A DNA stretch of 64,000 nucleotides from Myxococcota bacterium (GTDB taxonomy: Bacteria > Myxococcota_A > UBA796 > CAJQPC01): assembly GCA_036229005.1 (NCBI GenBank), contig JAZAMN010000003.1, forward strand, positions 64,001-128,000. The letters run 5' to 3'. Below, piece after piece: positions 8,848-62,697 of the stretch (the stretch's first letter is position 1; each line of letters begins with the position of its first letter). The translations under genes were made by a program, and so were the position numbers. The notes beneath the pieces are model-generated. The model did no database searches. It was not told the origin of the DNA and saw only the letters and a program-made list of their open reading frames with translations.

Positions 8848-10209
8848 ATGGGCATGACCGCACACCTTTGGGCCCTCTTGGCCTGCCACAACCCCCCGGA
8901 ACTGACCTGCGCCGTCGAGGCACAACTGCCCGCACCCGAGCCGTGGAGCGAGCAGCCCGGTCACCTGCACCCCTACATCGGCCAGATCGGGAGTTGGGAC
9001 GGCGCGGGCGGCGAACTCGACGGCTCCAGCAAGGTCCCCGCGCTCGACCAGCAGGTCGAAGCGGGCCTGTCCTGGACCTTCATGCCCCTTCACTGGAGCG
9101 AGCTGGAGCCGGACGGCCCGGCGGACCTGAGCGGGCCGCTGCCTCCCGAGTGGGAGGCGCTCGAGGCCTTCGTCCTGGAGGCCCACGCCCGCGGTCTGAA
9201 CGTGCTGGTGCAGGCGCCGGTGGTGGGCGGGAACAACGGGGGGCCGCCCGACTGGGTGGGCGCGGTGGAGAAGGGCCGCTCCGCCCCCGCGGACATGGAG
9301 GCGGCGTTCGACTTCTGCGGGACCCTGGCGCAGCGCTACGCCCCCGGGGGCACCCTCTGGCAGGAGCAGGGCGTGTCCGATTGGGGCGTTCAGGCCTGGG
9401 AGCTCGACAACGAGCCCGGCAGCTACCGCACCCACTGGGAGCAGCAGGAGGAGGACTTTGGCGACTTCTTCGCCGGCTGCGCCCAGGCCATCCGCGGAGT
9501 GGATCCCGACGCGCAGATCGTCGGCCCCGCCCTGGCCGCTGGGCAGGGGAACACCGTCTGGTGGGAGGACGTCCTGGCCAGCGAGGCTGAGCCCGGCCTG
9601 GATCTGAGCGTCTTCTCCTTCCACAGCTACGAGGGCATGGACAGCATCGGCCCCGACCGCCGCAGCGAGTGTGTTCTCTGGGAGCAGTACGGGGCCTACA
9701 GGAGCTGGGCGGAGTCCGCTGGCGTGACGCCGACCACAGCGGCCTGGCATACCGAGGGCGGCTTCGACTTCCTGGGGCGTCTGGGCGGCACCCAGCGGGC
9801 GCGCTGGCGCATGCAGTGGTCCGTCCGCCTACTGGGCCAGGGCGCCCACAAGATCACCTTCAAGGACCCCAAGGACGAAGAGCTGGTCGTCCAGGCCCTG
9901 CTCTCGGAGCACCTGGCGGACCCGTGGCCCCTGGAGGACCGCACCGCGGAGCTGGGACTGGGTGAGTTCGGGGGAGCCTGGGTCCATGAGGAGGAGAATG
10001 GAGGGGCGGTCTGGGTCTTGTGGCCCACCAACGGAGACCCTGCCGACCAGGACATCTGGCTACCCGTGTCCGCCAGCGAGGTGCGGCTGTTCGACTCCTC
10101 CGGAGAGACCTGGACGGAGTCTGCGCAGGACGGGGAGGTGCTCCTGAAGCTCAGAGGGTCCCGCCGATACAGCGAGACCCTCTTGGTTGTCGACCCAGGG
10201 GACGACTAG
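8848..10209 (+). CDS. Lipoprotein glycoside hydrolase, clan GH-A (GH39/GH5-like)
   Basis: LHWSELEP, WELDNEP (acid/base), SFHSY, WHTEGG (nucleophile); lipobox LLAC. Confidence 0.75.
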   Translation: MGMTAHLWALLACHNPPELTCAVEAQLPAPEPWSEQPGHLHPYIGQIGSWDGAGGELDGSSKVPALDQQVEAGLSWTFMPLHWSELEPDGPADLSGPLPPEWEALEAFVLEAHARGLNVLVQAPVVGGNNGGPPDWVGAVEKGRSAPADMEAAFDFCGTLAQRYAPGGTLWQEQGVSDWGVQAWELDNEPGSYRTHWEQQEEDFGDFFAGCAQAIRGVDPDAQIVGPALAAGQGNTVWWEDVLASEAEPGLDLSVFSFHSYEGMDSIGPDRRSECVLWEQYGAYRSWAESAGVTPTTAAWHTEGGFDFLGRLGGTQRARWRMQWSVRLLGQGAHKITFKDPKDEELVVQALLSEHLADPWPLEDRTAELGLGEFGGAWVHEEENGGAVWVLWPTNGDPADQDIWLPVSASEVRLFDSSGETWTESAQDGEVLLKLRGSRRYSETLLVVDPGDD

Positions 10210-10236
10210 CTCCGATCCCCCGGAGGACTAGTCGTC
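10201..10236. terminator. Inverted repeat spanning both stop codons of a convergent gene pair
   Basis: GACGACTAG-CTCCG-ATCCCC-CGGAG-GA-CTAGTCGTC. Confidence 0.45.
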
Positions 10237-11943
10237 GCTGCGCGGGCGACGGCGACGGCGCTTCTTGGCGCCCCCTTCCTTGGCCTTGGCCGCGTCCTTC
10301 GGCTTGGCCGCGTCATTGGGCTTGCTGGGCTTCTTGGCGGCGGGCTTGTCGCCCTTGTCGCCGCGGGGCTTGCGCTCGCCGCGGGGCTTGCGCTCGCCCT
10401 TGTCGTCGTCGCGGCGGCGGCGGCCACGGCCACCCTTGCCACCGCTCTTGCGCTCGGACTTGTCCTCGCGGGCCTCCTTCACGTCGGACACGGAGTCCAG
10501 GCCGCCCTCCTGGGCGCGCTTGTTCCGCTCGGACTCGAAGAAGGTGTAGAGCGCGGTGGCCAGGAGCATGTCGCCCTTGAGGCCGTCCATCTTCTTGAGC
10601 GCCTTGACCAGGCCCAGGTAGCCCTCGAAGGCGGTGGTGCCCATGGCGGACTCGATCGCGGAGACCTGGCGGTCCACGCGGAGCTTGTTGGCTTCTTCTG
10701 CGGTGGGCATGATGCGCTCCTCGAACTGGATGTCGAACTGCCGCTCGAGCACCATGCGGGTGCTCAGGTCGGGGCCGCCGACCAGCGAGATTGCGGTGCC
10801 CTTCTTCCCGATGCGGCCGGTGCGGCCGATGCGGTGCATGTAGACCGCGGGGTCCTGGGGCAGGCTGTAGTTGATGACGTGGGAGAGGTCGGAGATGTCG
10901 ATGCCGCGGGAGGCGACGTCGGTTGCGACCAGGAACTGCACGGCGCCGGACTTGACCCGGGCCATGACCTTCTCGCGCTTGCTCTGGGGCAGCTCACCGC
11001 TGATGAGCTGGGCGTCCAGGCCCTGACGGTCCAGGAAGGTGGCCACGGTGGAGGTGTCTTCGCGCGTGTTGCAGAAGATGATGGTCGAGCCGGGGGTCTC
11101 CTGGTCGATCACCGCGAGCAGGGCCCGCACCTTGTGGAAACCAGGGCTGGTCTCGTACAGGATGTGGTCGATGCCCTCGACCTTGTCCTGGTCGGTGCTC
11201 AGCAGGACCTCGACCGGGTCCTTGAGGTGGCGCTGGATCAGGCGCTTGACCTCGGGGGCCACGGTGGCCGAGAAGAGCAGGGTCTGCGCCTCGGCGGGGC
11301 ACTTCTTGAGGATGCCGGTGACGTCCTTGTAGAAGCCCATCGAGAGCATCTCGTCGGCCTCGTCCAGGCAGTTCACCTTGACCTTGGACAGGTCCAGGTT
11401 GCCGCGGCGGATGTGGTCCGCGACGCGCCCGGGGGTGCCCACCACGATCTCGACGCCCTCCTTGAGGGCCTCTTCCTGGGGGCCCATGGAGACGCCGCCG
11501 TAGATGGCCATCACGCGCACGTCCTTGTGCTTGACGATGGCCCCCAGCTCCTTGGCGATCTGGTTGGCGAGCTCTCGGGTGGGGGAGAGGATGATGCCCT
11601 GGGTCACCCGGGCGCCGCTCTCGACGAGCTCGCAGATGGGGAGGCCGAAGGCGGTGGTCTTTCCGGTGCCGGTCTTGGCCCGGACGAGCATGTCCCGACC
11701 CGCCAGAGCCGGATCGATGCTCTCGGCCTGCACGGGGGTGGCCATGGTGTAGCCCATCTCGTTGAGGCCCTGGAGGAGCTGCTCGGAGATGGGGAAGGAG
11801 TCGAAGCTGCGGCCGGAGTTGTAGTCCTTGCCCTTCCGGCCCGGGGATGCGGGCTGCGCTTCGGCCTGGTTGTCGTTGTTCGCGGCTGTCTCGCCGCTGT
11901 CGGCCGACTGCTCGGCCTCGTTCTCGGAGCGATTCTCGCTCAT
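10228..11943 (-). CDS. DEAD-box ATP-dependent RNA helicase
   Basis: AKTGTGKT, PTRELA, TPGR, LDEAD, SAT, HRIGRTGR; basic low-complexity C-terminal tail. Confidence 0.96.
   Translation of the reverse strand: MSENRSENEAEQSADSGETAANNDNQAEAQPASPGRKGKDYNSGRSFDSFPISEQLLQGLNEMGYTMATPVQAESIDPALAGRDMLVRAKTGTGKTTAFGLPICELVESGARVTQGIILSPTRELANQIAKELGAIVKHKDVRVMAIYGGVSMGPQEEALKEGVEIVVGTPGRVADHIRRGNLDLSKVKVNCLDEADEMLSMGFYKDVTGILKKCPAEAQTLLFSATVAPEVKRLIQRHLKDPVEVLLSTDQDKVEGIDHILYETSPGFHKVRALLAVIDQETPGSTIIFCNTREDTSTVATFLDRQGLDAQLISGELPQSKREKVMARVKSGAVQFLVATDVASRGIDISDLSHVINYSLPQDPAVYMHRIGRTGRIGKKGTAISLVGGPDLSTRMVLERQFDIQFEERIMPTAEEANKLRVDRQVSAIESAMGTTAFEGYLGLVKALKKMDGLKGDMLLATALYTFFESERNKRAQEGGLDSVSDVKEAREDKSERKSGGKGGRGRRRRDDDKGERKPRGERKPRGDKGDKPAAKKPSKPNDAAKPKDAAKAKEGGAKKRRRRRPRSDD
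10358..10398 (-). repeat. 18-bp in-frame tandem repeat (GERKPR x2) in the helicase tail
   Basis: TCGCCGCGGGGCTTGCGC occurs twice in tandem. Confidence 0.7.
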
Positions 11944-13082: not shown

Positions 13083-13955
13083 TCAGTGCTGCTCGTCGAA
13101 GCCCACGCTCCCGCCAACCGGGAGCAGGCAGGGCTCGTGTCCGCAGCTTCGGATCTCGCCCAGGAAGCCGGGCAGATCCACGCCGGGGAGACAGCGGGTG
13201 GGCTTGGACAGGGGGCCAAAGAACCAGTCCCAGTGGCAGGGGACCACCAGCTTGGGCTTGAGTGCCGCCAGGATCTCCTGCGTGTAGCCGGGGCGGTACT
13301 TGCGGCCGATGGCGCAGAGGCACACCACATCGGCCTCCAGGCCCTGCAGCAGCTCGGTGCGGTAGTCGGCGGAGTCCACGTGGACCACCTTGAGGCCGCC
13401 CCAGTTCACCCACCAGGTGTAGACCGCGCCGTGGCGCAGATCCGTGGTCCTGGGCGGCCAGCGGACGGGCTTGGGGATGTCCCCGGCCAGGCTGACCCGG
13501 TTGAAGTAGACCCGCCCGTGCTGGCTGGGGAGCGCCCTGGCGATGCCACCCGACAGCTCGATGTCCTCGTTCTCGGGCACGATGCGGATCTGGTGTTCGG
13601 GCAGCCCATAGCCCCGGGCGATGTTGGCGGTGTCGACGCTGCCCCACAGAGTCGCTCCCGTCTGCTCACAGAGAGCGGGGGCATCCAGGGCGTGATCGTA
13701 GTGGGAGTGGCCCACGAGCACGTCGTCCGCGCGGGGGATCTCGCGGCGCAGGGTCGCCTTGTCCACGGGGAGGGGGAGCAGGGCGGTCCGCAGCAGGCCG
13801 GGACGGCTGATGAAGGGGTCGAACACCAGGGTCTTCTGGCCGGACTCCAGGGTGAACCCCGCCGTGCCCAGCCAACGCAGGGTGTGGTGGCCCTTGAAGG
13901 GGCCCTGCCAGTACCCCTCGGTGGGGGCGGGCCGCGTGGCCAGGCGCCGGATCAT
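13083..13955 (-). CDS. Metallo-beta-lactamase fold hydrolase
   Basis: WLGTAGF, FDPF, GHSHYDHALD, VPCHWD; ATGA overlap with the upstream lipoprotein. Confidence 0.88.
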   Translation of the reverse strand: MIRRLATRPAPTEGYWQGPFKGHHTLRWLGTAGFTLESGQKTLVFDPFISRPGLLRTALLPLPVDKATLRREIPRADDVLVGHSHYDHALDAPALCEQTGATLWGSVDTANIARGYGLPEHQIRIVPENEDIELSGGIARALPSQHGRVYFNRVSLAGDIPKPVRWPPRTTDLRHGAVYTWWVNWGGLKVVHVDSADYRTELLQGLEADVVCLCAIGRKYRPGYTQEILAALKPKLVVPCHWDWFFGPLSKPTRCLPGVDLPGFLGEIRSCGHEPCLLPVGGSVGFDEQH

Positions 13956-14329
13956 TCGGCGTCGGCGGGGGGCTCGACCGTGGCCTGCTCGCCGCCCTTG
14001 GGGGTGATCTCCAGGCCGTCGCCCTCCTGCACCAGGCCCACCTGGGAGAGGTCCAGCACGCAGGCGCGCTCGGCCATGCCGACGACCTTGGTCCCGGGTT
14101 CGATGGCGACCACGCGCTGGCTGACGCCGGCGTCGATGAAGCCGGTGGTGCACTGGGGGGGCGTGCAGCCGGCCACGTACTCTTCGCCCTTGAGGGTCAT
14201 CTTGGCGGAGCAGGCGGTCTCGTACGTGGAGCCGATGCCCTGGGTCATGGACATGGACTCGGCGCAGCCGCTGAGCAGGCCGAGGCCCACCAGGGCGAAC
14301 AGAGCGGACGGGAGGGTGTGTGCACGCAT
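13952..14329 (-). CDS. Small lipoprotein, hypothetical
   Basis: MRAHTLPSALFALVGLGLLSGC lipobox; four further Cys. Confidence 0.75.
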   Translation of the reverse strand: MRAHTLPSALFALVGLGLLSGCAESMSMTQGIGSTYETACSAKMTLKGEEYVAGCTPPQCTTGFIDAGVSQRVVAIEPGTKVVGMAERACVLDLSQVGLVQEGDGLEITPKGGEQATVEPPADAE

Positions 14330-15157: not shown

Positions 15158-15161
15158 GCGC

Positions 15162-19231: not shown

Positions 19232-20422
19232 TCAGTGCATGGCCAGGGGGATGCGCTGGGTGTGCAGCAGCGTGCGGTCGCCCTGGGGGCCCTCCTCCAG
19301 CAGGCGGATCTCCAGCGCACCCTGGCCGCCCTCGGCCTTCTGCTCCGGGCTGAGGCTGAACTCCACCGCCCGGGTCTCACCCGCCTTCAGGCGCGTGTCG
19401 GGCCCGGTGGGGGCGAAGGGCGGCTCCGCGGCGATCGGGCGCTCCAGGCGCAGCTCGAAGGGCTCGCCCGTGTCCTGCCCTTCGGCGTCCACGGCGACCA
19501 CCTGGACCACCACCAGGGTGAAGGGCGAGCCCGTGGGGAAGCTGTGTCCGGCGCCCGTGTTCATGAGCGTCAGGGTGCCCGTGAGGGTCTCACCGCGGGT
19601 GAGCCCGCCCGGGGGGATGTCGGCCAGCATCGTCACCGCCCGCGCCGGATCCGCGGTCACGCCGTGGTCCCGGTGAGCGGCGAAGTCCCCGGCGGTGATC
19701 AGGCCAGATCGGGGAGGCATGTGGCAGTCCTGACACTGCACGCCGGCGGCGGGGTAGGGGCTGCGGCTCCACTCGCCGTAGGTGTCATACAGCGGCGCTT
19801 CGGCGCCCTCCCAGTCGAGCTGGTGGCAGCTCGCGCAGAACTCCGAGCTCCCCAGCTCCTCGCTGACGGCGACGGGGTGGGGGGCGCCGCTCGCAGGCCG
19901 GCTCCCGACCACGGTCTCGCCCCGGACGTGACAGGCCGCGCAGGTGACCCCTTCGGCGCTCAGGGAGGCGTCCCAGCTCTCGTTCGGCTCCACCAGCGCG
20001 CTGCCCAGCGGACCCCCGCTGTACTCGCGGACCAGGGCGGGCTGTTGGTTGACCAGCGGGGTGTGGCAGCTCGTGCAGAGCGGGCTGTTGCCCGTGGCCG
20101 CCATGGCCGCCTGGAAGGCCTCGTTGCCCAGGGCGTCGGCGTGGGCCGAGTCCGCCCAGCTATCGTGGATCTCGTAGTGGCAGCCGTTGCAGCTCTGGGC
20201 CGAGAGGCTGGCGACCCCGGGGGGCAGGGCCTGGTGGGCCACGGGCAGGCCCTCGGGGAAGAGCTTGGGGGCCTTGGCGGCCTTGGGCTCGGCCTCGGCG
20301 GGGGTCTCATCGGGCGAGGGGTCCGCGACCGGGGGCGGCGCGGTCTGCTGGCCCTTGTTCTTGCGCGCGGCGAAGGCCAGCGGCAGGGCGAGCAGCAGCA
20401 GCGGGAGCAGGCGGGCGTACAT
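19232..20422 (-). CDS. Exported pentaheme c-type cytochrome (c554-like) with C-terminal beta domain
   Basis: Signal peptide; five CxxCH motifs (CNGCH, CTSCH, CAACH, CASCH, CQDCH); GAGHSFPTG. Confidence 0.9.
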   Translation of the reverse strand: MYARLLPLLLLALPLAFAARKNKGQQTAPPPVADPSPDETPAEAEPKAAKAPKLFPEGLPVAHQALPPGVASLSAQSCNGCHYEIHDSWADSAHADALGNEAFQAAMAATGNSPLCTSCHTPLVNQQPALVREYSGGPLGSALVEPNESWDASLSAEGVTCAACHVRGETVVGSRPASGAPHPVAVSEELGSSEFCASCHQLDWEGAEAPLYDTYGEWSRSPYPAAGVQCQDCHMPPRSGLITAGDFAAHRDHGVTADPARAVTMLADIPPGGLTRGETLTGTLTLMNTGAGHSFPTGSPFTLVVVQVVAVDAEGQDTGEPFELRLERPIAAEPPFAPTGPDTRLKAGETRAVEFSLSPEQKAEGGQGALEIRLLEEGPQGDRTLLHTQRIPLAMH

Positions 20423-22965
20423 CAGAAATCAATGACCTCGGGCTTGTCCTCTCCGCCGCGGCGGGGGACGTGCACCACGGCGCCGTCGGGCGCGTAGAGC
20501 GTTGTGTAGACGGCGTAGTTCTCGCTGACCTTCTTCACGTAGGTGCGCGGCTCCCGCAGCGGGATCTGCTCCACCCAGTCGTCCAGGTCGATCTTGCCCT
20601 TCCAGGGGCGGTACCAGGAGCTCACGTTGACCGGCCCGGCGTTGTAGCTCGCCACCGCCATGGGCCAGCAGCCCTCGAAGCGGTCCAGGAGCTGGCTCAG
20701 GTAGAACACGCCGTACTGGATGTTCGTGGCGGGGTCCTCCAGCACGGCGGGGGTGTAGCTCTCCACGCCCAGCAGCCAGGCGACCTTGGAGCCGGTGTGG
20801 GGCATGATCTGCATGACCCCGATGGCCCCTGCGTGGCTCAGCGCGGTGCTCCGGTACAGGCTCTCGCGCCGCATCAGCCCAAAGGCCAGCAGCGGGTCGA
20901 CGTTGTACTCGCGGGACCAGCGCTCGACGTGCTCGCGGTGGGCGGTGGGGTAGCCCAGCCTCCAGGCGAGCAGCCTGTCCTCGCTGGTGGGCGCAGACTT
21001 CTCCAGGCCCAGGGAGAAGCGGGTGCTGTGGTGGTGGTCCTGCGCATAGACGAACGCCGACCGCCACTCCCCCTTGGTGATCGAGACCGCGCGCACCTGC
21101 TTCTGGCGCTCGCTGCGGCGGGACGCGCTGGCCTCGTACTCGTCGTAGATGTCCGCGAGGATCTCGCCGCTGAGCTCGTAGACGCCCACGCTGGCCAGGT
21201 CGTAGGCGGCCGGGAAGAGGGGCCAGACCTCGGCGTTGCGGTCCGCGATGCGCTTGAAGGTGGGGCCGTAGGAGGCGGGATCGACGTAGCGGCCCTCGAC
21301 ATAGGCGTCGTCCACCGCTGGCAGGGCCGTGGCCTTCGGGAAGCGGATGGGGATCGGCTCCACCGGCGAGGTCACCTCGGCCGGCTCCGACCACTGCGGG
21401 GCGCCCCAGGCCAGCGCGCCCCAGTCGAAGGCCTCCGGCTCGGGATCCTGCGTCTGTCCGGCGACGCGAGCCGGGACCGCGCTCCCCACCGGGCTCGCGG
21501 GCGGCTGCACCACCTGCGCGGCGGGGGGAGGCCCCGGGTTTCGACCCTGGCGGAGCTGCTCGGCGCTCATCTCGGCCAGGCCCGTGCGCCAGCGGGACTC
21601 CAGCATCAGCGCGTACCAGGTGTGCTCGGCGTTCTTGCGGATCCAGTTGTAGTCGGCGGCCGCCTTGCTGCGCTCGCCCAGCTTGGACCAGCTCTTCCCG
21701 CGGTAGTAGCGCGCGCTCAGGCCGGTCTCGCCGCCCTTGGCCACGATGGGGTCCAGCCGCGCGATGGCCTCCTTGTGCTCGCCCATCATGTAGGTGTCGT
21801 AGGCGGCGAACCACTCGGCCGCTCGGGCCAGCCCGCCCCCGCCCTTGGACAGCGCGTCCCAGTGCTCCCGCGCCGCCTCGTAGTTCCCGGCCATCTGCTG
21901 GGTGTGGGCGACCACGTCCCGCGCGTAGCGGAAGCGCCGGCTGCTGCCGTGGTTCTTGAGGCCCAGCTCGCCGTACTTGGCGGACTCCTCGAAGTAGCCG
22001 CCGCGGAAGTAGGCGCGGAACGCGTACCAGCAGTCCTCCGTGTTGGGGGCCTTCTCGTACTGCTGGGCGAAGGAGTCCCCCAGCGCCCGATACTGCTTGG
22101 TCCGCCAGGCGAAGGTGCTCCAGTTGGCCTGCTGCCAGGCCTTGACCGCCTCGTCGTCGGGGTTCTGGGCGCCGATGTCCTGGTACAGCGCCCAGGCCTC
22201 CTCCTTGAGGCCGCAGTCCCGCAGGCTGACGGCGCGGAGCTGGGCCTCGCGGACTGCGCCCATGTCGGGCTCGGCCAGGTCTTCGACCTCCATCAGAGCG
22301 TCCAGCGCGCCCTGCGCGGCCACGGCGGTGCAGGGATACTCGAAGCTGAGGGTCATCCCCTTGAGGAGCTGCGCGCCCTTGGCGGGGCTGGCGTTCGCCT
22401 CCGCCAGCGCCATACCCAGCTTGAGCTCTTCGGCCCGCGGGGTGTTCGGGTGCAGGTCCAGGTACTCCTGGTAGGCGTCGATCGCGGGCTTTCGGCTCCC
22501 GGCGGCCACCAGGGCATCCCCCCGCAACACCAGGCACTCGTCCGCGTGGGGACCATCCGGCCACTTGGTCCGGTAGGTCGCGCACTCGCTGGCGGCGACG
22601 CTGTGGCGCCCGCGCATGTGGTCCGAGAAGGCCTCGTACCAGGCACCGTAGGGGGAGAGCGGGCCGTTGCTCAGGCGCACGGCGGTGAACTGGGCCGAGG
22701 CCAGGTTCCAGCGCCCCTGGTCCATGTAGAGCCAGCCCAGCAGGAAGCGTCCGGCGGCTCGGGGGCGGCCGTAGGGACCCTCACCAGAGGCCAGCCAGGC
22801 CTCCAAGGTCGCGATGGCCTGCGTGTCGTCCCCTCGCTTGTGCGCAGCCACCCCCTCCTCCAGGGTGGAGGCCACGATGGGGACCGAGCCAGGGGCGACC
22901 GGCGGGGCCTCTGGCAGGCGGGCGCCCCCGAGCAGCGCGAGGCCCAGGCAGAGAGAGGTCAGCAT
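20422..22965 (-). CDS. Soluble lytic transglycosylase (SLT) with TPR-like repeats
   Basis: MRRES, GAIGVMQIMP, ASYNAG, EPRTYVKKV; helical repeat N-terminal region. Confidence 0.92.
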   Translation of the reverse strand: MLTSLCLGLALLGGARLPEAPPVAPGSVPIVASTLEEGVAAHKRGDDTQAIATLEAWLASGEGPYGRPRAAGRFLLGWLYMDQGRWNLASAQFTAVRLSNGPLSPYGAWYEAFSDHMRGRHSVAASECATYRTKWPDGPHADECLVLRGDALVAAGSRKPAIDAYQEYLDLHPNTPRAEELKLGMALAEANASPAKGAQLLKGMTLSFEYPCTAVAAQGALDALMEVEDLAEPDMGAVREAQLRAVSLRDCGLKEEAWALYQDIGAQNPDDEAVKAWQQANWSTFAWRTKQYRALGDSFAQQYEKAPNTEDCWYAFRAYFRGGYFEESAKYGELGLKNHGSSRRFRYARDVVAHTQQMAGNYEAAREHWDALSKGGGGLARAAEWFAAYDTYMMGEHKEAIARLDPIVAKGGETGLSARYYRGKSWSKLGERSKAAADYNWIRKNAEHTWYALMLESRWRTGLAEMSAEQLRQGRNPGPPPAAQVVQPPASPVGSAVPARVAGQTQDPEPEAFDWGALAWGAPQWSEPAEVTSPVEPIPIRFPKATALPAVDDAYVEGRYVDPASYGPTFKRIADRNAEVWPLFPAAYDLASVGVYELSGEILADIYDEYEASASRRSERQKQVRAVSITKGEWRSAFVYAQDHHHSTRFSLGLEKSAPTSEDRLLAWRLGYPTAHREHVERWSREYNVDPLLAFGLMRRESLYRSTALSHAGAIGVMQIMPHTGSKVAWLLGVESYTPAVLEDPATNIQYGVFYLSQLLDRFEGCWPMAVASYNAGPVNVSSWYRPWKGKIDLDDWVEQIPLREPRTYVKKVSENYAVYTTLYAPDGAVVHVPRRGGEDKPEVIDF

Positions 22966-23842: not shown

Positions 23843-25675
23843 ATGCTGCTGGCGCTGCTGCTCGCCTGTCCGCCCCCCATCATCGTGATGGAGGACACCA
23901 CCACGACGGACTCGCCCCAGGACAGCGAACCGCAAGACACCGACCCCGTCGACTTCGACGGAGACGGCTACCCCGAGGGCGTGGACTGCGATGACCTGGA
24001 CAGCTCGGTGAACCCGGGCGCCACAGAGATCTGGTACGACGGCCGGGATCAGGACTGCGACGGGAACGACTGCGACCAGGACAACGACGGGGTCCTGTTC
24101 GACTTCGCGATCTGCGGGGGCACCGACTGCGACGACAAGAACGCCGCCATCCGCCCTGACGCGACCGAAGTCTGGTACGACGGCGTGGACCAGAACTGCG
24201 ATGCCTGGTGTGACTGGGACGCCGACATGGACGGCTTCGCGGTGGACGGCAAGACCGGGACCGACTGCGTCGAGGTGCCGCTGGGGGACTGCGATGACGC
24301 GGTCGCGAGCACCAACCCCGACGCCTTGGAGTACGTCGACGGTCTGGACAGCGACTGCGACGGGGTCGAGGACGACCTGGAGACCCTGGACGCGGTCACC
24401 AGCCTCCAGGGCAACGGCGGCGACTTCGGGCTCTGGATGACCACTGGCGATGCCGACGGCGACGCCTACCCCGAGATCTGGGTCAGCAGCCCCGCTGCCA
24501 ACAGCGGCGCGGGACGGGTCGCCCGCTACAACGGCCTGGAGATCGACGCGGACGTCGGCGGGACCCTGGCCTGGACCCGCGCGGAGACCGCCATCGGCCC
24601 CAACGGCGCGAGCGGCGGGATCGGCGCGCCGATGTGGCGCCTGGACCTGGACGACCCCGGGCAGGGGCGCCTGGCCATCGGGGACCCCGGCTCCGGTCAG
24701 GTGCTGCGCTTCAACGAGCCCACCGCCTTGAGCACCGTGGCCACCTCGGACGCGAGCGTCGCCTACTTCTCGAGCTCCTACACCGTCTCCGGGGGCGCGA
24801 TGGGCGTCGTCCGGGCCGGCGCCGACCAGGACGCGCTGATCTTCCTGGGGACCCCGCTCGGCAGCAGCAGCTCCACCCAGGGCGCGCTGTGGCTCTACCC
24901 CACCGACCAGGCCATGCCGGCCTCCAAGGAGATCAGCAGCCTCCCTGGGACCCGGCTCTACCTGTCCGGCAACGTGTCCGACCAGCTCGGGGCCTCGGCG
25001 GTCGCGGTGGATCTGGATGGGGACGGCAAGCAGGAGCTCCTCGTAGGCATGCCAACCGCAGACAAGTCCGACGGCACCCCGGAGGTCGGCGGTGTGGTCA
25101 TCGTGGACAGCACCACGCTCTCTGACATCATCCTGGGCCACGCGGGCAGCCAGAAGGATCTCAGCGACATGGCCCAGATCAAGGGCGACAAGGCGGGCAA
25201 CCAGTTCGGCCAGCAGCTCTTCGCGGTGGGCGATGTGGACGGGGACGGGGTCGACGACCTGATCGCGAGCTCTCTGGTCTCCGGCAAGGCACGCCTGCAC
25301 CTGGTCTCCGGCGCGACTGCTGGGAGCAAGTCCGCCAGCCTGCTCCCCCGCATCGACGTGGGGCGCAGCTCCGACCTCACCGCCAACTACGTCGCGGCCG
25401 CCGACCTCAACGGCGACGGCGTGAACGACCTGGCCATCGGTGACGGGGACTCCCAGCAGGTCCTGATCTTCCTGGGGCCCCTGAGCGCCGCCAGCTACAC
25501 CGCGGCCGACGCCGATGCGGTCGTGAACAGCAGCGCCGCGGGCTTTGGCAGCTCCCTGATGTTCGTGGACAGCCTGGATGCGGATGGCGTGGTGGAGCTC
25601 TGGGTCTCGGCTCCGGAGGCGGTGGTTGACGGGAGCGTCGAGGGCGCGGTCTACCTGCTCCCGCTCGCGTTCTGA
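23843..25675 (+). CDS. Lipoprotein with DCDD/putative metal-binding repeats and FG-GAP (integrin-like) beta-propeller
   Basis: Three DCDD…NPGATE…DG.D.DCDG-type repeats; GDxDGDG/DLNGDG repeats; GGAGG RBS; MLLALLLAC. Confidence 0.88.
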   Translation: MLLALLLACPPPIIVMEDTTTTDSPQDSEPQDTDPVDFDGDGYPEGVDCDDLDSSVNPGATEIWYDGRDQDCDGNDCDQDNDGVLFDFAICGGTDCDDKNAAIRPDATEVWYDGVDQNCDAWCDWDADMDGFAVDGKTGTDCVEVPLGDCDDAVASTNPDALEYVDGLDSDCDGVEDDLETLDAVTSLQGNGGDFGLWMTTGDADGDAYPEIWVSSPAANSGAGRVARYNGLEIDADVGGTLAWTRAETAIGPNGASGGIGAPMWRLDLDDPGQGRLAIGDPGSGQVLRFNEPTALSTVATSDASVAYFSSSYTVSGGAMGVVRAGADQDALIFLGTPLGSSSSTQGALWLYPTDQAMPASKEISSLPGTRLYLSGNVSDQLGASAVAVDLDGDGKQELLVGMPTADKSDGTPEVGGVVIVDSTTLSDIILGHAGSQKDLSDMAQIKGDKAGNQFGQQLFAVGDVDGDGVDDLIASSLVSGKARLHLVSGATAGSKSASLLPRIDVGRSSDLTANYVAAADLNGDGVNDLAIGDGDSQQVLIFLGPLSAASYTAADADAVVNSSAAGFGSSLMFVDSLDADGVVELWVSAPEAVVDGSVEGAVYLLPLAF

Positions 25676-41131: not shown

Positions 41132-41910
41132 TCGAGCGCCGGATCTGCCCCGTCCGCGGGCGGGAGGTCCTGCTCGACACCAGCCGCGTCCGCCTGCCGC
41201 GCGCGTGGCCGACCCCCGAGCAGCAGCCGCCAGAGTGGGCAGGCCAGCAGCCCATCACGACCATCGGCCCCGTGCAGGTCCACGCCAACGGCCGCCCCCT
41301 GCTCATCCTGGAGGCCAGCGATCCCTCGGGCGGGCTGGGCGCCAACGAGGTCCTCTTCCACGCTGACGCCTCCTGGGCCCAGGTCCTCCGGGCCGTGAAC
41401 AGCCGCGTCCACTCGCTGCGGCGGGATGCCCGTCTCCGCCACTTTGTCTGGGCCTGCGATCTCGGAAGCGCCCGCAGCGAGCAGCCCCACAGCCTGCTCC
41501 TGGCCAGCCCCAGCCCGCTCCCCGCCACCCGCGAGCTCCAGCTCCGCGTGCTCCCCGAGCAGGTGCGTCACGCCCGCAGTGAGGGCCGGGTCTTGTGGGA
41601 GGGGGAGGGGGCTTGTGTGCTGCTCCCACACGCTCCGCTCACCCCCTTTGAGTGCTGGGTGCTCCACATCGACGGCACCGCGCCCGCAGGCGAGGACACC
41701 GGGTCCCTTGGCCAGGCCCTCGCGCGCTGCGTGGCCCTGCTGGGCGGCGCGCTGGCCGCGCCCCTGGCCCTGAGTCTGGCTGTCCGGGACGACGGCTGGC
41801 TCCTTGTCGTGCAGCCCCGCCTGCACCCGCCCACCGCCATGGAGCTCGCGACGGGCATCGCCATGCACGGCGTACCCTCCGAGCGGGCCGCGAGCGTCCT
41901 CCGCGCCTAA
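41128..41910 (+). CDS. Degenerate GalT (hexose-1-phosphate nucleotidyltransferase)-like protein
   Basis: GTGA overlap with the branching enzyme; ERRICPVRGREVLL…R, GANEV, QPHSLLLA (HPHSQ-like), PFECWV, ELATG…SERAA. Confidence 0.65.
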   Translation: MIERRICPVRGREVLLDTSRVRLPRAWPTPEQQPPEWAGQQPITTIGPVQVHANGRPLLILEASDPSGGLGANEVLFHADASWAQVLRAVNSRVHSLRRDARLRHFVWACDLGSARSEQPHSLLLASPSPLPATRELQLRVLPEQVRHARSEGRVLWEGEGACVLLPHAPLTPFECWVLHIDGTAPAGEDTGSLGQALARCVALLGGALAAPLALSLAVRDDGWLLVVQPRLHPPTAMELATGIAMHGVPSERAASVLRA

Positions 41911-43511
41911 AGGCCCAGGCCCATCTGGAGCAGCCCGACCTCGCTGGCGGGATCTGTGGCGAGGAGCTCGTCCACCCCGTCGCCGTCGAGGTCGGCCACG
42001 GACCACGCGGCGCCCACCCCCTCTTCGATCAGCAGCTCCCACTCTCCGGAAGCATGCCTGTAGAGCGCGCCCTGGTGGTGGATCAGCAGCTCCGGGCCCT
42101 CGCCGGCGTCCCAGGCCAGCACGCCGGTCGACGGGGTGCCCAGATCCTGCCAGCTCCCCCCGGCGAACACCCAGGTGCCCCCGTAGGGCTCCGAGGCCGC
42201 CAGGTCGTCCAGCCCGTCGCCGTCCCAGTCGCCCAGGGCCGCGATCTGCCACGCGAAGCGCCCGCCCTCCACCGCGCTGGGCTGGTGCCAACTCTGGGTG
42301 TCTCCCTGAACCCACCAGAGTCCGTCGGCCAGAGGCGCGCCCGCCGCCCACTCCTGCACGCCGTCGCCGTCGCTGTCGCCGATCCAGGCCAGGCTCAGGC
42401 CCGTCGCGGAGCCGGCGCTGCCCACCAGCACCGGGTCGCTCAGGGGCGTGGCCTCCGCCTCCAGATCCAGCAGGTAGACCGCCCCGCGGTTGTCGTCGTG
42501 CCCGTAAGCGCCGACCAGGCCCTCCTGAACGCCGTCGCCGTCCACGTCCGCGGCCAGCAGGGTCGAGCCCGCCCAGGCCTTGAGCTCCTGGCCGATCCAC
42601 AAGGACGTGGCCTCGCCGGTGAGCAGGCGTCCCTGGGCCAGGTCCTGCGCGGTGAACAGCGCGACCGCCCCCGCAGCGTAGGCGCCCCGCTCGTCTCCGG
42701 GGACACCCACGAGCAGGTCCGCCAGGCCGTCTCCGTCCACGTCTCCCGGGGCCGCGAGCGCCCAGCCGCCCAGGTCCGCGCTGCCCTCCGCCGTGAAGGT
42801 CGCCGCCAGACTGTGCGCGTCGGCGCTGCCCAGGGTGTCGGAGTACAGCAGCGCGACCCCGCCGGCCTTGGGGCGAGGCGTCCCCCAGTAGGGCAGCCCG
42901 ATCGCGAGCTCAGCCCCACCATCACCGTCCATGTCGCCCACCCAGGCGGCCCCCTGACCCAGGTAGGCCTCCTCCTTGGCGTCCAGGGCGATCTGCGCCC
43001 GGGGCTCGCTGGGCTCGGTCTCCAGCTCCAGCGCCGCGTCCGACACCACGCAGCTCCGGAGCCCATCGCGGGACTGGGGCCAGAGCAGGGGACCTTCGCT
43101 GCGGAAGTCCGCGCCCTCCCAGTGGAAGGAGCCAGGGTCCTGGGCCTGCACGCCGCAGGTGGCTCGGCACAGCAGCGCCCCCCCGATGTCCTCGACGGCG
43201 AGGTCCAGCGTCCGAGCCTGCGCGGGGGACCGGGTCCCCGAAGAGTGGGCCACCCCGTTCAGGGTCACCGTACAAGCCACCTCGTCCGCGCACTGCAGCG
43301 CCGTGGGGGCCGCATCGACCAGCGCACCGTTCACCGTCCAGGTCACCGGCAGGTCCAACGCCGGGGTCTGGATGCACGCCGCCGAGTAGGGGCCGGGAGA
43401 GGTGCTCGGGGTGATCTCCAGGCTCAGGCTCACCGTCTCCACACCTGTATCGCCCGTCTCCTCGACACTGTCAGGCATCGGCGAGGTGCAGCTCAGCCAA
43501 AGCAGGATCAT
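41907..43511 (-). CDS. FG-GAP repeat lipoprotein
   Basis: Start MILLWLSC (ATGA overlap, GGAGG RBS); repeated GDxDGDG..DLxxG motifs. Confidence 0.82.
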   Translation of the reverse strand: MILLWLSCTSPMPDSVEETGDTGVETVSLSLEITPSTSPGPYSAACIQTPALDLPVTWTVNGALVDAAPTALQCADEVACTVTLNGVAHSSGTRSPAQARTLDLAVEDIGGALLCRATCGVQAQDPGSFHWEGADFRSEGPLLWPQSRDGLRSCVVSDAALELETEPSEPRAQIALDAKEEAYLGQGAAWVGDMDGDGGAELAIGLPYWGTPRPKAGGVALLYSDTLGSADAHSLAATFTAEGSADLGGWALAAPGDVDGDGLADLLVGVPGDERGAYAAGAVALFTAQDLAQGRLLTGEATSLWIGQELKAWAGSTLLAADVDGDGVQEGLVGAYGHDDNRGAVYLLDLEAEATPLSDPVLVGSAGSATGLSLAWIGDSDGDGVQEWAAGAPLADGLWWVQGDTQSWHQPSAVEGGRFAWQIAALGDWDGDGLDDLAASEPYGGTWVFAGGSWQDLGTPSTGVLAWDAGEGPELLIHHQGALYRHASGEWELLIEEGVGAAWSVADLDGDGVDELLATDPASEVGLLQMGLGL

Positions 43512-44512
43512 CGGGCCTCCACGCTCAGTCCCTTCTCCTCCAAGGCTGCCTGGAAGGCGGCGGGGTCTGTGGTGGCGAAGAGCTGGTAGGTGGCGGCGGG
43601 GGTCTCCAGGGGCGCCAGCCCGACGCGCAGCAGCCACTGGCCCTGGTCCAGGGGCAGATTCAGCGTGCGCAGGCTGTGGAGGGGGTCTTCAGAGCCGGCG
43701 TGGGGCGCGCCGTCGCAGCGGTGCAGGTCCAGCGTGGTGCCGCCCTCGGGGGAGAAGAGCGCGACCTTGAGGGTGCCCGCCCGGGGGAGCTCCACCAGCC
43801 AGGCGTCCGGGTAGGGGCCGTCAAAGCGCACGCGGGAGCGCGTCCAGGTGTCCAGGGGCAGGGGGCTGGGGGCGTCCGGGACGGCGCTGAACTCCTGGAT
43901 CTGCAGGCGCAGCTCGCTGTCGTCCACGTTCAGGGTGCGCGCCCCGGGGCCCAGCGCGACGTCGGTCTTGGAGGTGAGCTTCTGGCGGACCACCAGATCC
44001 TGGTCCCGCAGGCGCACGCTGCTGTCCTGGGCCAGGGGGCGGGGGGCCCAGGCGGCGCTTCCGGTCGGCATCTGGGTGCACACGCCGGCCTGCACGCACA
44101 GCTCCAGCCGCAGCTCGATCTCGCCCTCGAAGCCAAGGACGTTCGCCCGCTTCCGCGCCTGGGGGCTCAGGCTCGCGTCGGTGAACAGGATGCGCCAGTT
44201 GGGGGCCTCGGCGGCCAGCTCCACGGGGGCGTCGCTGCGGGGAACGCTCACCCGCATGCGCTGCCAGATCCCCAGGGGGCCGGCGCGGTAGCGGACCAGC
44301 ACAGACGACAGGCCGGGCTCTTGCGCGGGGAGCCGGAGCTGGAGCTCGCGCCCCTGATGCCGGGCGGGGATGTCGCCCTCCAGCACCTCCAGCTCGCGGA
44401 CGTCCAGGTCGGGGAGGGTGGCGCTGACCTGGGTGTTCAGGCACGCCGGGGTGCTGGGCAGGGTCAGCTCTCCCTGGCGCTGCAGCGCACACCCCAGCAG
44501 CAGGAGCAGCAC
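43508..44512 (-). CDS. Hypothetical lipoprotein
   Basis: GTG start MLLLLLGC directly after the sulfatase-like gene's stop; stop overlaps the next gene. Confidence 0.7.
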   Translation of the reverse strand: MLLLLLGCALQRQGELTLPSTPACLNTQVSATLPDLDVRELEVLEGDIPARHQGRELQLRLPAQEPGLSSVLVRYRAGPLGIWQRMRVSVPRSDAPVELAAEAPNWRILFTDASLSPQARKRANVLGFEGEIELRLELCVQAGVCTQMPTGSAAWAPRPLAQDSSVRLRDQDLVVRQKLTSKTDVALGPGARTLNVDDSELRLQIQEFSAVPDAPSPLPLDTWTRSRVRFDGPYPDAWLVELPRAGTLKVALFSPEGGTTLDLHRCDGAPHAGSEDPLHSLRTLNLPLDQGQWLLRVGLAPLETPAATYQLFATTDPAAFQAALEEKGLSVEAR

Positions 44513-46402: not shown

Positions 46403-47059
46403 ATGCTTTCCCTCCTGCTTCTCGCGCTGAGCCCTTGGTGGCAGAGCCCCCCCGTCGCTCCCGGCACCCAGCAGGCGCGCGGGGTGCCCTACGCGTTCAC
46501 CCGCACCGGGGACTGCACCCAGCACAAGCAGACCGTGGCGTGCTTTCAGGACCAGGGCCTCCGCCTGTTGGCCCGCCCCCACAGCGACCCCGTCCCGGAG
46601 AGCGCTCCCCGGGTCTGGCTGCGGGTCTCTGGCCTTGAGTGGCAGGCCTTCCACGCCCAGCCCATCGGGGAGGCGGATCTGGGCGGTCAGCGCGTCCCGG
46701 TACACCGCCTGGGACACCCCCACGCACCCCACGCCGGCTGGGAGCTCGCCCGCATCGACGAGGACACCGGTCCCCAGGGCGAGCGCGTGAAGGCGGTCTC
46801 GCTGGAGCACGCCGCGGGCTTGGTGCAGCCCAAGCTGGCCGGCCAGGCGGCGCTGGGCTGCCCGCTGGTCCCCCTGGAGGACGCGCCCATCGCCCTGCTC
46901 TACGACGACAGCGGCGCCCTCCGGATGCTGCGCCTGCAGGGCCTCCCGTCCGCGGGCCTGGGCGCCCTCGATGACCTCGCTTGTGTCGCAGAGGCCCTCT
47001 CGGGGGCGAAGGTCAAGCCGGGTGTGAAGGTGGTGGAGGCCGCATTGACGCTGCGCTGA
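46403..47059 (+). CDS. Hypothetical exported protein
   Basis: Hydrophobic N-terminus MLSLLLLALS; fills the gap between neighbouring genes. Confidence 0.6.
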   Translation: MLSLLLLALSPWWQSPPVAPGTQQARGVPYAFTRTGDCTQHKQTVACFQDQGLRLLARPHSDPVPESAPRVWLRVSGLEWQAFHAQPIGEADLGGQRVPVHRLGHPHAPHAGWELARIDEDTGPQGERVKAVSLEHAAGLVQPKLAGQAALGCPLVPLEDAPIALLYDDSGALRMLRLQGLPSAGLGALDDLACVAEALSGAKVKPGVKVVEAALTLR

Positions 47060-54762: not shown

Positions 54763-54816
54763 TTGTTGTCTGCCTCTAGAGGGCGATGAGAGGGGAGGGG
54801 GGCTCAGGCCGAAGCC

Positions 54817-56460: not shown

Positions 56461-56469
56461 AATCAAACC

Positions 56470-57465
56470 TCAGTTCAGGGTCTTGAGGTAGTCGATGAGG
56501 GCGTTGACTTCTTCGTCGCTGAGCTGCCCCTCGAAGGGAGGCATGGAGGGCGCGAAGCCGTCGACGACCTTGGTCGCCGGAGCGAGGATGGACTCCCGCA
56601 GGTAGTTCTCGTCGACCGTGATGGTCTCACCGGTGCTGAGCTTCTCCTCGCGGCCCATGACACCCTTGAGGGTGGGGCCGACCAGGGGGGAGCCGTCGAC
56701 GCTGTGGCAGCCGTTGCAGGCCTTCTTCTCGAAGAGGTGCTCGCCCAGGGCCACGCCGGTCAGGCTGCCGGCGGCCTCGGCCTCGGCCTTCTGGCCATCG
56801 ACCCAGGCGTCGAACTCGGCGGGGGGGACCACCTTGACGGTGTTCAGCATCACGCTGTGGCCGTCACCGCAGTACTCGGTGCAGAAGATGTGGTGCTCGC
56901 CGGGCTCGGGAGCGTTGAACCACACCACGGAGTAGCGGCCGGGGATGACGTCCTTCTTGACCCGGAAGTCGGGCACGTAGAAGGAGTGCAGCACGTCCTT
57001 GGAGTTCATGGTCAGCCGGACGTTGGTGCCGGCGGGGACCACGAGCTCGGAGCCGGTGATGCCCTCGTGGGGGTACTCGAAGTTCCACTTCCACTTCTCG
57101 CCGACGACGCGGATGTCGTAGCTGTCAGCGGGGGGGATGGCGCCCTCAACATACACCCGGAAGCCGGTCACGAAGATCGCGACGGCCAGGATGGTGGGGA
57201 CGACGGCCCAGACCAGCTCGAGGCTGTGGCTGCCCCGGGAGGGGTGGGTCTTCTCGCCTTCCTGCTTCTGCTTGTACTTGAAGGCGAAGAAGATGACCGC
57301 GCCCATCATCAACACGAAGAAGACGATGTCGATGTAGTAGATGAAGTAGAAGACCTTGTCCACGTCTGCGGCGACGGTGGAGGCCTGAGGGGGCATCCAG
57401 AAGGTGCCCCCTTCGGCTGCAGCGGCCATGCCTGCGCCCAGGAGTGGGAGGAGGAGGGAGTTCAT
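56470..57465 (-). CDS. ctaC: Cytochrome c oxidase subunit II with C-terminal cytochrome c (caa3-type)
   Basis: DVLHSF, CuA motif CTEYCGDGHSVM, heme motif CNGCH. Confidence 0.96.
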   Translation of the reverse strand: MNSLLLPLLGAGMAAAAEGGTFWMPPQASTVAADVDKVFYFIYYIDIVFFVLMMGAVIFFAFKYKQKQEGEKTHPSRGSHSLELVWAVVPTILAVAIFVTGFRVYVEGAIPPADSYDIRVVGEKWKWNFEYPHEGITGSELVVPAGTNVRLTMNSKDVLHSFYVPDFRVKKDVIPGRYSVVWFNAPEPGEHHIFCTEYCGDGHSVMLNTVKVVPPAEFDAWVDGQKAEAEAAGSLTGVALGEHLFEKKACNGCHSVDGSPLVGPTLKGVMGREEKLSTGETITVDENYLRESILAPATKVVDGFAPSMPPFEGQLSDEEVNALIDYLKTLN

Positions 57466-58510: not shown

Positions 58511-58540
58511 GTCCGGGAATCCTGGGCTGGGTCAGCCGCG

Positions 58541-58557
58541 TGCGACGAATCGTCGCA
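58541..58557. promoter_or_regulatory. Perfect palindrome, candidate RegA/RegR-type box or RNA hairpin
   Basis: TGCGACGA-A-TCGTCGCA (GCGAC-N5-GTCGC), 30 nt upstream of the first gene of the oxidase operon. Confidence 0.5.
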
Positions 58558-58629
58558 TCCACGGCTGGCGGGGAGTGTAGCTAATGAAGTGGGAAGGGGG
58601 GTTCAACGCTGCCAAGCCGGGCGCTGGGC

Positions 58630-59520: not shown

Positions 59521-60446
59521 GCGGAGGTGGCTGCCTCTGGGGCGGCGGTGGGGGAGTGTACACCCGGTCGGCGCGAAAAGATGTCCTGGATCATCAAGCC
59601 TGTGACAAGACACAGGCTGGCCGCCACCGCGGAGTGCCCCGCAGTGACCTCGACGGGGAGCTGCCAGAGGACGTTGGCCACGCCCAGGGCGACCTGGACC
59701 AAGACCAGGCCCAGCAGGATCCGGGCCTTGGTGCCCAGGCTGTCCTGATCCCAGGCCAGCGCGGCGATGATCGTGTAGAGCACGGCCAGCGCATACGCGG
59801 TGCTGCGGTGCATGAGGTGCAGGCCGACCGGGCCTTCCCAGGTGGGGAACCACAGGGTGCCGACGCACTGGGGCCAGGTGACGCAGGCCAGGCCGGCGTG
59901 GCCCGAGGAGACCAGTCCGCCCAGGGCCATCTGGGCGACCAGGAGCACGCCGGCGAGGGGCGCGAGCAGCCGCAGCACACCGCGCTGCAGGGCGGGCCGA
60001 GGGGCTGGGTCGTGGCCGCGCCAGAGCAGCGCGGCGAGGAGGCCCAGGCTCAAGGCGAAGGTGTTCCCGACCAGCAGGTGGGAGGTGACGGTCCACTGCG
60101 CGAGCAGCTCGAGGACGGTCAGGCCTCCGAGGATGATCTGAACCAGAAGGATGATCCAGGTCACGATCAGCCACTTGCCGATGAGCTGGCGCTCCGGCTT
60201 CTCCTTGAGCGCCCAGACGCTGACCCCCAGCAGCAGCAGGCTGATGCTGCCGGCGAGTGCTCGGTGGCCCCACTCGAAGAACACCCCGAAGTCCAGAGCG
60301 GGGACGAGCTGGCCGAAACACAGGGGCCAATCCGGGCATGCAAGCCCGGCGCCCTGGGCGCGCACGATCGCGCCGAAGACCACCAGGAGGTAGGTCAGGA
60401 CGCTGAGGACGATGAAGGCCCGGGCCAGTCGGCGGGTGCGAGGCAA
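59517..60446 (-). CDS. ctaA: Heme A synthase (CtaA/COX15)
   Basis: GAGLACPDWPLC, EWGHR, second ACVTWPQC, HLMHR; TTG start with GGAG RBS. Confidence 0.92.
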   Translation of the reverse strand: MPRTRRLARAFIVLSVLTYLLVVFGAIVRAQGAGLACPDWPLCFGQLVPALDFGVFFEWGHRALAGSISLLLLGVSVWALKEKPERQLIGKWLIVTWIILLVQIILGGLTVLELLAQWTVTSHLLVGNTFALSLGLLAALLWRGHDPAPRPALQRGVLRLLAPLAGVLLVAQMALGGLVSSGHAGLACVTWPQCVGTLWFPTWEGPVGLHLMHRSTAYALAVLYTIIAALAWDQDSLGTKARILLGLVLVQVALGVANVLWQLPVEVTAGHSAVAASLCLVTGLMIQDIFSRRPGVHSPTAAPEAATSA

Positions 60447-62117: not shown

Positions 62118-62181
62118 GGGGACCTCCAGGGCCCCAGCAGTATCGCTCCCACCTCAGCGCGCCCGAAACGGTCCGGCGACA

Positions 62182-62697
62182 CTACTCGCTGTCGCCGTCG
62201 CTGCCGTCGGACTTGGGGGTCACGCCGGTGGCGGTGAGGACGTTGGAGACCTCGCCCTCGGAGTCCGTGATGCGGATGGCGAAGTCGTAGGGGGTGTTGG
62301 TGGGGATGGCGCCGCCCACCTGCAGGTTCAGGGCGATGGTGGCCGGGCTGTCCGCGGTGTCGAACACGGAGCACTCCGAGTCGCTCATCAGGGTCCAGGT
62401 CTTCTCGGAGTCCGGCGCGCCGCTGGTGTCCACGCTGCCGTCCGCGTCGCCCTCCCACCAGATCTCGAGGGTGATGGCGTCCAGGTTGCCGTCCTCGTCG
62501 GTGGCGTCGGCCTGGAGCTGGATGGTGGGGGCCTCGGTGCCGTCGAAGTCCACCATGCCGCCGTTGGCCAGCTCGAAGCGGGTCAGGACAGGGTCGTGGC
62601 CCTTGCAGACCGCGGTGTCCTCGGAGCGGATGGGCGGGGTCTCGCCGGTGTCTTCGCCGTTGTCCTTGCAGGCCAGGGTCGCGAGCAGCCAGAGCAT
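62182..62697 (-). CDS. Acidic lipoprotein, hypothetical
   Basis: AAGGAG RBS; MLWLLATLAC; Ig-like D/T-rich mature part. Confidence 0.75.
   Translation of the reverse strand: MLWLLATLACKDNGEDTGETPPIRSEDTAVCKGHDPVLTRFELANGGMVDFDGTEAPTIQLQADATDEDGNLDAITLEIWWEGDADGSVDTSGAPDSEKTWTLMSDSECSVFDTADSPATIALNLQVGGAIPTNTPYDFAIRITDSEGEVSNVLTATGVTPKSDGSDGDSE

Follow-up and report, generated by a model that had tools for sequence, protein, structure and literature searches.

How short can a natural export signal become, and can it dispense with positive charge? The question is posed by a 64,000-nucleotide stretch of DNA from a Myxococcota bacterium (C3:64001-128000, referred to below as the window, from a genome of 6.4 Mb with 70% GC that is 94% complete), in which five putative lipoproteins begin with a hydrophobic segment free of Lys and Arg (K/R) that runs directly into a lipobox-like Cys at residues 8 to 13. 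Canonical lipoprotein signals average 16-26 residues and are built from a basic n-region, an h-region, and the lipobox [LV][ASTVI][GAS]C (PMC8689077), and a genome survey gives a mean Cys position of 21.4 together with a motif that requires K/R (PMC13068155). The short N-termini are most likely signals of the Sec pathway, and their use extends over a large part of the genome. A preliminary description of the window had pointed out the five N-termini, and all of them are present where it had placed them:

8848..10209, plus strand: putative lipoprotein of 453 aa with weak glycoside-hydrolase matches; uncharged signal with Cys13 (8848-8886)
23843..25675, plus strand: putative lipoprotein of 610 aa with MopE-type repeats and FG-GAP; uncharged signal with Cys9 (23843-23869)
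41907..43511, minus strand: FG-GAP putative lipoprotein of 534 aa; uncharged signal with Cys8 (43511-43488)
43508..44512, minus strand: putative lipoprotein of 334 aa without a Pfam match; GTG start, Cys8 (44512-44489)
62182..62697, minus strand: putative lipoprotein of 171 aa without a Pfam match; uncharged signal with Cys10 (62697-62668)

With 56 genes called, chance would give the window about 0.1 short lipobox starts; five are seen. The gene at 23843 has GGAGG spaced 7 nt from its start, and its preceding stop lies 15 codons upstream with no in-frame start between; that at 43511 combines GGAGG at 4 nt with an ATGA overlap, the one upstream GTG lying 42 codons away within the upstream gene; and that at 62697 has AAGGAG at 6 nt, with a GTG 10 codons upstream that lacks a Shine-Dalgarno (SD) sequence. 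The start at 44512 abuts the in-frame TGA of the upstream gene and has no SD, and a longer signal is excluded because this stop lies directly upstream; its start codon is GTG, not ATG. At 8848, no SD is present at 3-13 nt; no in-frame ATG, GTG, or TTG occurs among the 22 codons that follow the preceding stop, and the Cys is residue 13, or residue 11 if counted from the second ATG. A related-locus search with the protein starting at 43511 returned one distant match.

Number and make-up of the short signals

Counting Met-[hydrophobic]-[AGS]-Cys starts over the whole genome, a check that the preliminary description had proposed, shows a scale far beyond the window. With an in-house caller that combines dicodon scores with SD and overlap evidence, 5,357 genes were called, and 691 of them (about 13%, or roughly 1 in 8) form a short class in which Met is followed by a Leu-rich uncharged segment and [AGS]-Cys, with 5-13 residues before the Cys (Cys at 6-14, mode 8-10) and no K/R. 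Of the 26,612 Met residues inside proteins, 58 (0.22%) are followed by this motif, a rate that would predict about 12 cases genome-wide, and the position of the first Cys, taken over all genes unfiltered, peaks at residues 8-12. A long canonical class with Cys at 15-35 and K/R holds 216 genes, and 73 lipobox starts fit neither class. Lipoprotein-type genes make up about 17-18% of the called genes (907-980 of 5,357), and their products are strongly acidic (Asp+Glu 17%) with many DxDxDG repeats. The trait is not that of one expanded family, because the 907 lipobox proteins fall into 715 sequence clusters and short signals are spread over 544 of these; 21 clusters contain paralogues with both short and long signals, which points to the two being interchangeable.

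Since the first filter barred K/R by construction for Cys at or before residue 8, the count was redone with a relaxed filter. K/R is then present in 12 of 695 starts with Cys up to residue 14, in 12 of 28 at Cys15, in 16 of 28 at Cys16, and in 25 of 28 at Cys17; in non-signal proteins, K/R occurs within residues 2-5 in 41%. The fraction of bulky residues rises from 0.40 in the longest signals to 0.93 in the shortest, with an average of 4.5-6.1 bulky residues in the h-region. At position -1 the short class has Ala 527, Gly 129, Ser 34, and Thr 1 (n=691), the predominance of Ala, Gly, and Ser in 690 of 691 being partly by construction, as the filter admitted A/G/S/T/N.

Shortening is also seen in signals of the type processed by signal peptidase I (SPase I). 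In 283 soluble proteins without a lipobox, the chain begins directly with the hydrophobic core, carries no K/R in residues 2-8, and has its first [AV]xA site mostly at residues 11-15 (null rate 1.0%); the canonical SPase I-type count of 135 came from a stricter filter and is not directly comparable with the 283. Because these proteins are shortened too, the trait concerns export in general. The proposal of a separate, lipoprotein-specific route is accordingly not supported, the core machinery being moreover present in single copy (see below).

Distribution among relatives

Is the trait a peculiarity of this genome? A caller-free DNA pattern for Cys-8 signals has 64 matches in the genome itself and is matched in 35 of 43 other genomes of its order (at least five matches in 19 of them, up to 110); outside the order it is matched in 49 of 257 genomes, with a maximum of 4 each. 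The corresponding Cys-10 pattern reaches at least 10 matches in 35 of 54 genomes of the order vs 0 of 26 outside it (maximum 6). By gene calling on samples of 80-200 kb per genome, short uncharged signals account for 30 of 37 lipobox starts in the genome itself, 34 of 42 in the genus, and 15 of 23 in the family; in other families of the order, the share is 13 of 37, 10 of 28, 2 of 8 (G136), and 0 of 15 (G187), and outside the order it is 7 of 90 in seven genomes. In the genome G169, 8 of 21 short signals are intermediates with one K/R at Cys11-14. As kin are not independent, these counts are descriptive and not tests. They place the trait, as far as sequence can tell, as order-restricted and graded within the order, so that the comparison with relatives suggested in the preliminary description finds enrichment in one order and near-background levels outside it.

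Position of the translation starts

Several lines of evidence bear on whether the short starts are the true ones. In 350 of the 691 genes, no ATG, GTG, or TTG occurs upstream before the preceding stop, in 115 that stop is too close for Cys at residue 15 or beyond with any start codon, and in 144 there is no in-frame K/R codon upstream. An SD is present in 461 of the 691, and 156 starts overlap the upstream stop. In 61 short-class genes the start is preceded by a TANNNT box at a distance of 6-7 nt, and no other spacing between 0 and 16 nt accounts for more than 4; this peak suggests that the mRNAs of these genes are leaderless. In a 200-kb portion of a genome of the same genus, 23 of 24 homologues match short-class proteins and have, as judged by eye, a start codon close before the hydrophobic run that places the Cys at residue 15 or before.

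These observations leave the proposal of a start-calling artefact, in which translation would really begin further upstream and take in a basic n-region, hardly credible. Formally, 167 of the 691 genes can be extended to a canonical signal, 27 with an SD at the upstream start, but non-signal genes pass the same test at the same rate (26.6%), and only 7 have their better SD at the upstream position while lacking support from an overlap. The 115 stop-bounded genes and the 144 without upstream K/R codons speak against it, and upstream starts were rejected as a general explanation on the grounds of stops, absent start codons, and this unremarkable extension rate. A fault of the caller was likewise rejected, as a caller of the same design gives canonical signals in the seven outgroup samples and the DNA patterns, which need no caller, agree on the restriction to the order. 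Read-through of stop codons could supply an n-region to few genes, with only 11 of the 691 starts abutting an in-frame stop. That translation starts at the short Met is therefore well supported by the gene sequences, and an upstream basic n-region, which the preliminary description had named as the finding that would overturn it, is excluded for the stop-bounded genes, with the starts appearing mostly right.

The TANNNT box, which resembles a -10 element, also occurs 6-7 nt upstream in 325 of all 5,357 genes, often without an SD, as at 14329 (minus strand) in the window, which suggests that leaderless mRNAs are widespread in this genome.

Export of the products

Haem c attachment takes place outside the cytoplasm, and 34 of the 84 CxxCH proteins belong to the short class, among them an MbnH di-haem enzyme (above cut-off), a di-haem peroxidase, and multihaem cytochromes. 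A NodT-family outer-membrane factor (above cut-off) has a Cys10 signal, its gene having a GGAGG SD and no alternative start further upstream; two paralogues carry canonical signals, and two RND adaptors likewise carry short signals. The number of cysteines following the lipobox is even in 468 and odd in 132 short-class proteins, comparable with 141 and 42 in the long class, vs 1475 and 1654 in no-signal proteins; from this bias it follows that the lipobox Cys is the unpaired one. No later transmembrane segment is found in 679 of the 691. The preliminary description of the products as exported types thus agrees with knowledge of the families and with the even-cysteine bias.

Across 30 loci of the MbnH family, the lipobox is at the same place. 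Ten of them lie outside the order: six have readable starts, all with K/R signals and Cys at residue 15 or beyond (one also with an internal Met), three have no clear start, and one has no lipobox. The loci inside the order include short uncharged signals, intermediates with one Arg, and canonical signals. Because di-haem cytochromes and the NodT outer-membrane factor use them, the short N-termini are most likely Sec signals. Export by the Tat pathway was considered and rejected, as Arg is absent from the short class, and the 14 proteins that match a Tat-like pattern lie outside it.

SecY and the export machinery

The genome encodes SecA, SecY, SecE, SecDF-YajC, YidC, Ffh, FtsY, the RNA of the signal recognition particle (SRP), and Lnt in single copy. 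Ffh and FtsY score above cut-off, Ffh is found in 30 of 30 relatives, and loss of SRP was rejected, Ffh, FtsY, and SRP RNA all being encoded. A second SecA was searched for in this genome and not found; two SecA matches occur in the genomes G292 (where a single gene is split in two), G248, and G058. When the signal groove of SecA is aligned with that of E. coli, part of the acidic stretch near E. coli 287-295 falls in a gap. For maturation there are four Lgt (two above the TIGR00544 cut-off), two LspA with both catalytic Asp motifs, and one Lnt, also with its catalytic motifs, and the Lol genes comprise LolA and LolC/D-like components of a LolCDE-type transporter. Three signal peptidase I genes score above the TIGR02227 cut-off. 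Lgt matches number 2-6 per genome in the order and 1-7 outside it, and an order-specific adaptation by Lgt expansion was rejected on account of this phylum-wide range. Close relatives of one of the divergent Lgt are found in 27 of 30 genomes of the order vs 8 of 26 others, a pattern that sequence distance alone could explain.

Residue-level comparison across relatives covers SecY, in an alignment of 30 sequences from the order and 27 from outgroups that leaves out three genomes without a match (G267, G037, and G109) and one in which the gene is split in two (G192). The position of E. coli I187, a member of the isoleucine pore ring (PMC2171872), is Ala185 in this genome, and it is Ala (21) or Ser (9) in all 30 sequences of the order, vs Ile, Met, or Thr in 27 of 27 and Ala or Ser in 0 of 27 outgroups. 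The other ring positions I86, I191, I278, and I408 are unchanged in the order, I82 is kept in 29 of 30, and the plug looks normal. Three further SecY columns (E. coli 41, 110, and 192) change residue class order-wide; F192, which adjoins the ring residue Ile191, is Thr in 28 of 30. Mutations of the prl type reduce the signal requirement (PMC2585858, PMC3518225). The preliminary description had suggested unusually permissive Sec, Lgt, or LspA and an inspection of lgt, lspA, secY, and SRP. A permissive Sec fits best; the four Lgt copies are normal for the phylum, and SecY and SRP are single-copy.

Some maturation genes deserve a separate remark. The two Lgt paralogues below the TIGR00544 cut-off (C21:84375-85220 and C52:307944-308822) have in common a different motif following the conserved Gly-Arg, and the His/Tyr that usually precedes Gly-Gly is missing from both. 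At C8:68311-71829, lspA is followed by the gene of a 495-aa membrane protein without a Pfam or NCBIfam match, a further lspA, and lgt; the 495-aa protein is a candidate for an as yet unrecognised enzyme of lipoprotein maturation or lipid modification. Besides LepB at C25, there are three divergent signal peptidase I paralogues (C52:286927-287505, C47:53477-54106, and C73:2629-3498), and the lepA-adjacent signal peptidase I is a short divergent form. BamD is normally a lipoprotein; the BamD homologue of this genome (C7:59545-60351) has an Arg-bearing, apparently SPase I-type signal without a clear lipobox.

Relation to known signals

The short class resembles Sec signals processed by signal peptidase II (Sec/SPase II; E. 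coli Lpp type) in that a hydrophobic run is followed by a small residue and Cys and then by a tether rich in Pro, Asp, and Thr, in that it occurs on known lipoprotein families (NodT factor, RND adaptors, MbnH), and in that Lgt, LspA, Lnt, LolA, and a LolCDE-type transporter are encoded. It differs in having 5-13 residues before the Cys, no n-region, exclusion of charge, and Leu at -2 in 461 of 691, and the K/R-requiring motif G+LPPv3, as described in PMC13068155, cannot match it. The small -1 residue, the h-region, the N-terminal site, the extracytoplasmic domain, and the machinery are thus those of Sec/SPase II signals, whereas length, charged n-region, and consensus lipobox are not; by their sequences, the signals appear to work like Sec/SPase II signals without being canonical members. 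The 283 shortened proteins share with canonical Sec/SPase I signals, which have an n-h-c organization (PMC9360617), a Leu-rich core followed by an Ala-x-Ala-like site, with signal peptidase I encoded, and differ in starting at the hydrophobic core and reaching [AV]xA at 11-15. In sequence, the SecY of the order is like a prlA-type translocon in that the bulky ring residue I187, next to I191, is replaced by Ala or Ser; it is unlike one in that the change is natural and order-fixed and the rest of the ring and the plug look normal.

With respect to processing, LspA cleaves in vitro the synthetic lipopeptide Abz-LALAGC*SS-nY, for which about five residues before the Cys suffice (PMC6952399), and the catalytic dyad of the enzyme is located inside the membrane (PMC9360617). 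Unlike the short class, such substrates are pre-lipidated and in detergent, and they are silent on targeting and translocation. Our analysis therefore takes processing to be the easy part of a short-signal route and targeting and gating to be the hard part. A literature search that left subscription journals mostly uncovered and supplements unread found no description of such short uncharged signals.

Proposed mechanism and alternatives

The account somewhat favored here is that the short N-termini are true Sec signals consisting of a Leu-rich core and a lipobox, that they are handled by ordinary Lgt and LspA, and that the loss of a SecY ring residue may have lowered the threshold. In this account, the 4-6 bulky residues would be recognized by SRP or SecA, and the segment, too short for the bilayer, would slip into the lateral gate, its N-terminus being freed from the cytoplasmic face. 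A charged N-terminus held on the cytoplasmic side of a 5-13-residue segment would prevent the Cys from reaching the outer leaflet, whereas a segment of at least 16 residues would span the bilayer and need K/R for its orientation; the observed pattern, with charge excluded up to Cys14 and K/R near-universal from Cys17, would then arise because the ability to span changes. The mature chain would reach the periplasm, as the c-type cytochromes, the outer-membrane factor, and the paired cysteines imply, and Lgt, LspA, and Lnt would act at the lipobox, which appears to be all that LspA needs in vitro. In evolution, the SecY change would have come first and order-wide, and signals would then have been shortened gene by gene, to very different degrees. 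A more far-reaching formulation, which is quite possible though held only tentatively, is that the whole order, an uncultured one of myxobacteria-like organisms, runs a second export-signal grammar of 5-13 uncharged residues, enabled by a natural prl-like SecY without Ile187.

It has to be noted that several observations weigh against this account. The textbook lipobox is matched by 125 of 691 short signals vs 108 of 216 long ones, which is explained by the Leu at -2; the starts rest on our own caller, with at least one false positive seen (a cytoplasmic-type enzyme); Ala or Ser at position 187 also occurs in 20 of 150 diverse SecY representatives (about 13%); three other SecY columns separate the order equally well; members of the order with little of the trait share the SecY change (G187 with 0 of 15, G136 with 2 of 8); and the literature search found no prl phenotype from a change of I187 alone. 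Because the change is found in those other representatives and in the low-trait members, it is at most permissive: it may have allowed the shortening and is insufficient to predict it.

A competing view is that these are true, processed Sec/SPase II signals but that no special machinery is involved, any Sec translocon tolerating short, very hydrophobic, charge-free signals toward which the order has drifted, with SecY as a neutral marker. In its favor, the core components are conserved and encoded once each, the trait shows gradation, including one-K/R intermediates at Cys11-14 (the 8 of 21 in G169), the SecY change is neither unique nor tracks the strength of the trait, and E. coli Lpp mutants without n-region charge are reportedly still exported, if slowly. 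Drift of this kind would, however, be expected in other lipoprotein-rich, GC-rich relatives as well, and outside the order only background is seen (7 of 90 lipobox starts, and at most 4 Cys-8 matches in any of 257 genomes), which makes it rather unlikely, although a serious competitor. A dedicated factor is improbable. It might be one of the divergent Lgt, the second LspA, the membrane protein between the lspA genes, or an unrecognised targeting chaperone, and the two Lgt below cut-off (one with relatives in 27 of 30 vs 8 of 26 genomes), the preference for Leu at -2, and the 495-aa protein without a family match inside the lspA-X-lspA-lgt cluster could all be read in its favor; the copy number of Lgt is equally high outside the order, the paralogue pattern is confounded by sequence distance, and the shortening of SPase I-type signals points to a cause upstream of Lgt and LspA. 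Export with the short segment kept as an uncleaved anchor, or with the Cys acylated by other chemistry, has still less to recommend it and is judged very improbable: most lipoboxes are indeed off consensus at -2, but position -1 is A/G/S in all except one of the short signals (with the limit on that count given above), homologues and paralogues with canonical signals have their Cys at the same place, and LspA and Lnt are present with catalytic motifs.

Significance

A three-part signal with a basic n-region is among the most general rules of protein export and is built into motif-based predictors. Here, hundreds of natural and mostly unrelated proteins (544 clusters) break the n-region rule alike, with canonical signals as controls in the same cell, their signals being about half the textbook length and the Cys probably lipid-modified. 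If the more far-reaching formulation is true, up to three quarters of the lipoproteins of the order and many of its secreted proteins would use the second grammar, a new natural minimum for a signal peptide would be set, and an n-region would be needed only by signals whose length allows them to be anchored across the bilayer. The order would offer a natural library for studying the minimal signal, the role of positive charge, and whether one SecY ring residue sets the threshold. Its lipoproteins and secreted proteins are probably under-predicted in current annotations, and 7-residue export and lipidation tags could aid protein engineering if they work in laboratory hosts.

Other features of the window and genome

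The two signals that the preliminary description had taken to be of normal length, at 5235 and 14329, are indeed canonical and carry K or R. Three short uncharged signals without a lipobox, at 46403 (plus strand), 22965 (minus strand), and 57465 (minus strand), had been overlooked in it. These features are:

4747..5235, minus strand: internal control, canonical lipoprotein signal with K and Cys20
13952..14329, minus strand: internal control, canonical lipoprotein signal with R and Cys22
20422..22965, minus strand: TPR and SLT lytic transglycosylase (periplasmic enzyme family), N-terminus hydrophobic and uncharged
46403..47059, plus strand: protein of 218 aa with a short uncharged signal without a lipobox (SPase I-type class)
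56470..57465, minus strand: subunit II of a cytochrome c oxidase, which includes a cytochrome c domain; its N-terminal signal of about 17 residues lacks K/R

The last of these belongs to a cytochrome c oxidase cluster at 52646-60446 (minus strand), which contains this subunit II and SCO1 together with, as judged from their N-termini, further oxidase subunits and haem-synthesis genes. At 29070-33292 (minus strand), a gyrB/parE-like gene lies beside a gyrA/parC-like gene, both assignments being from N-terminal sequence only. The genome as a whole is Myxococcota-like in having 32 matches to the MYXO-CTERM tag, which is described as universal in Myxococcota (PMC11980579).

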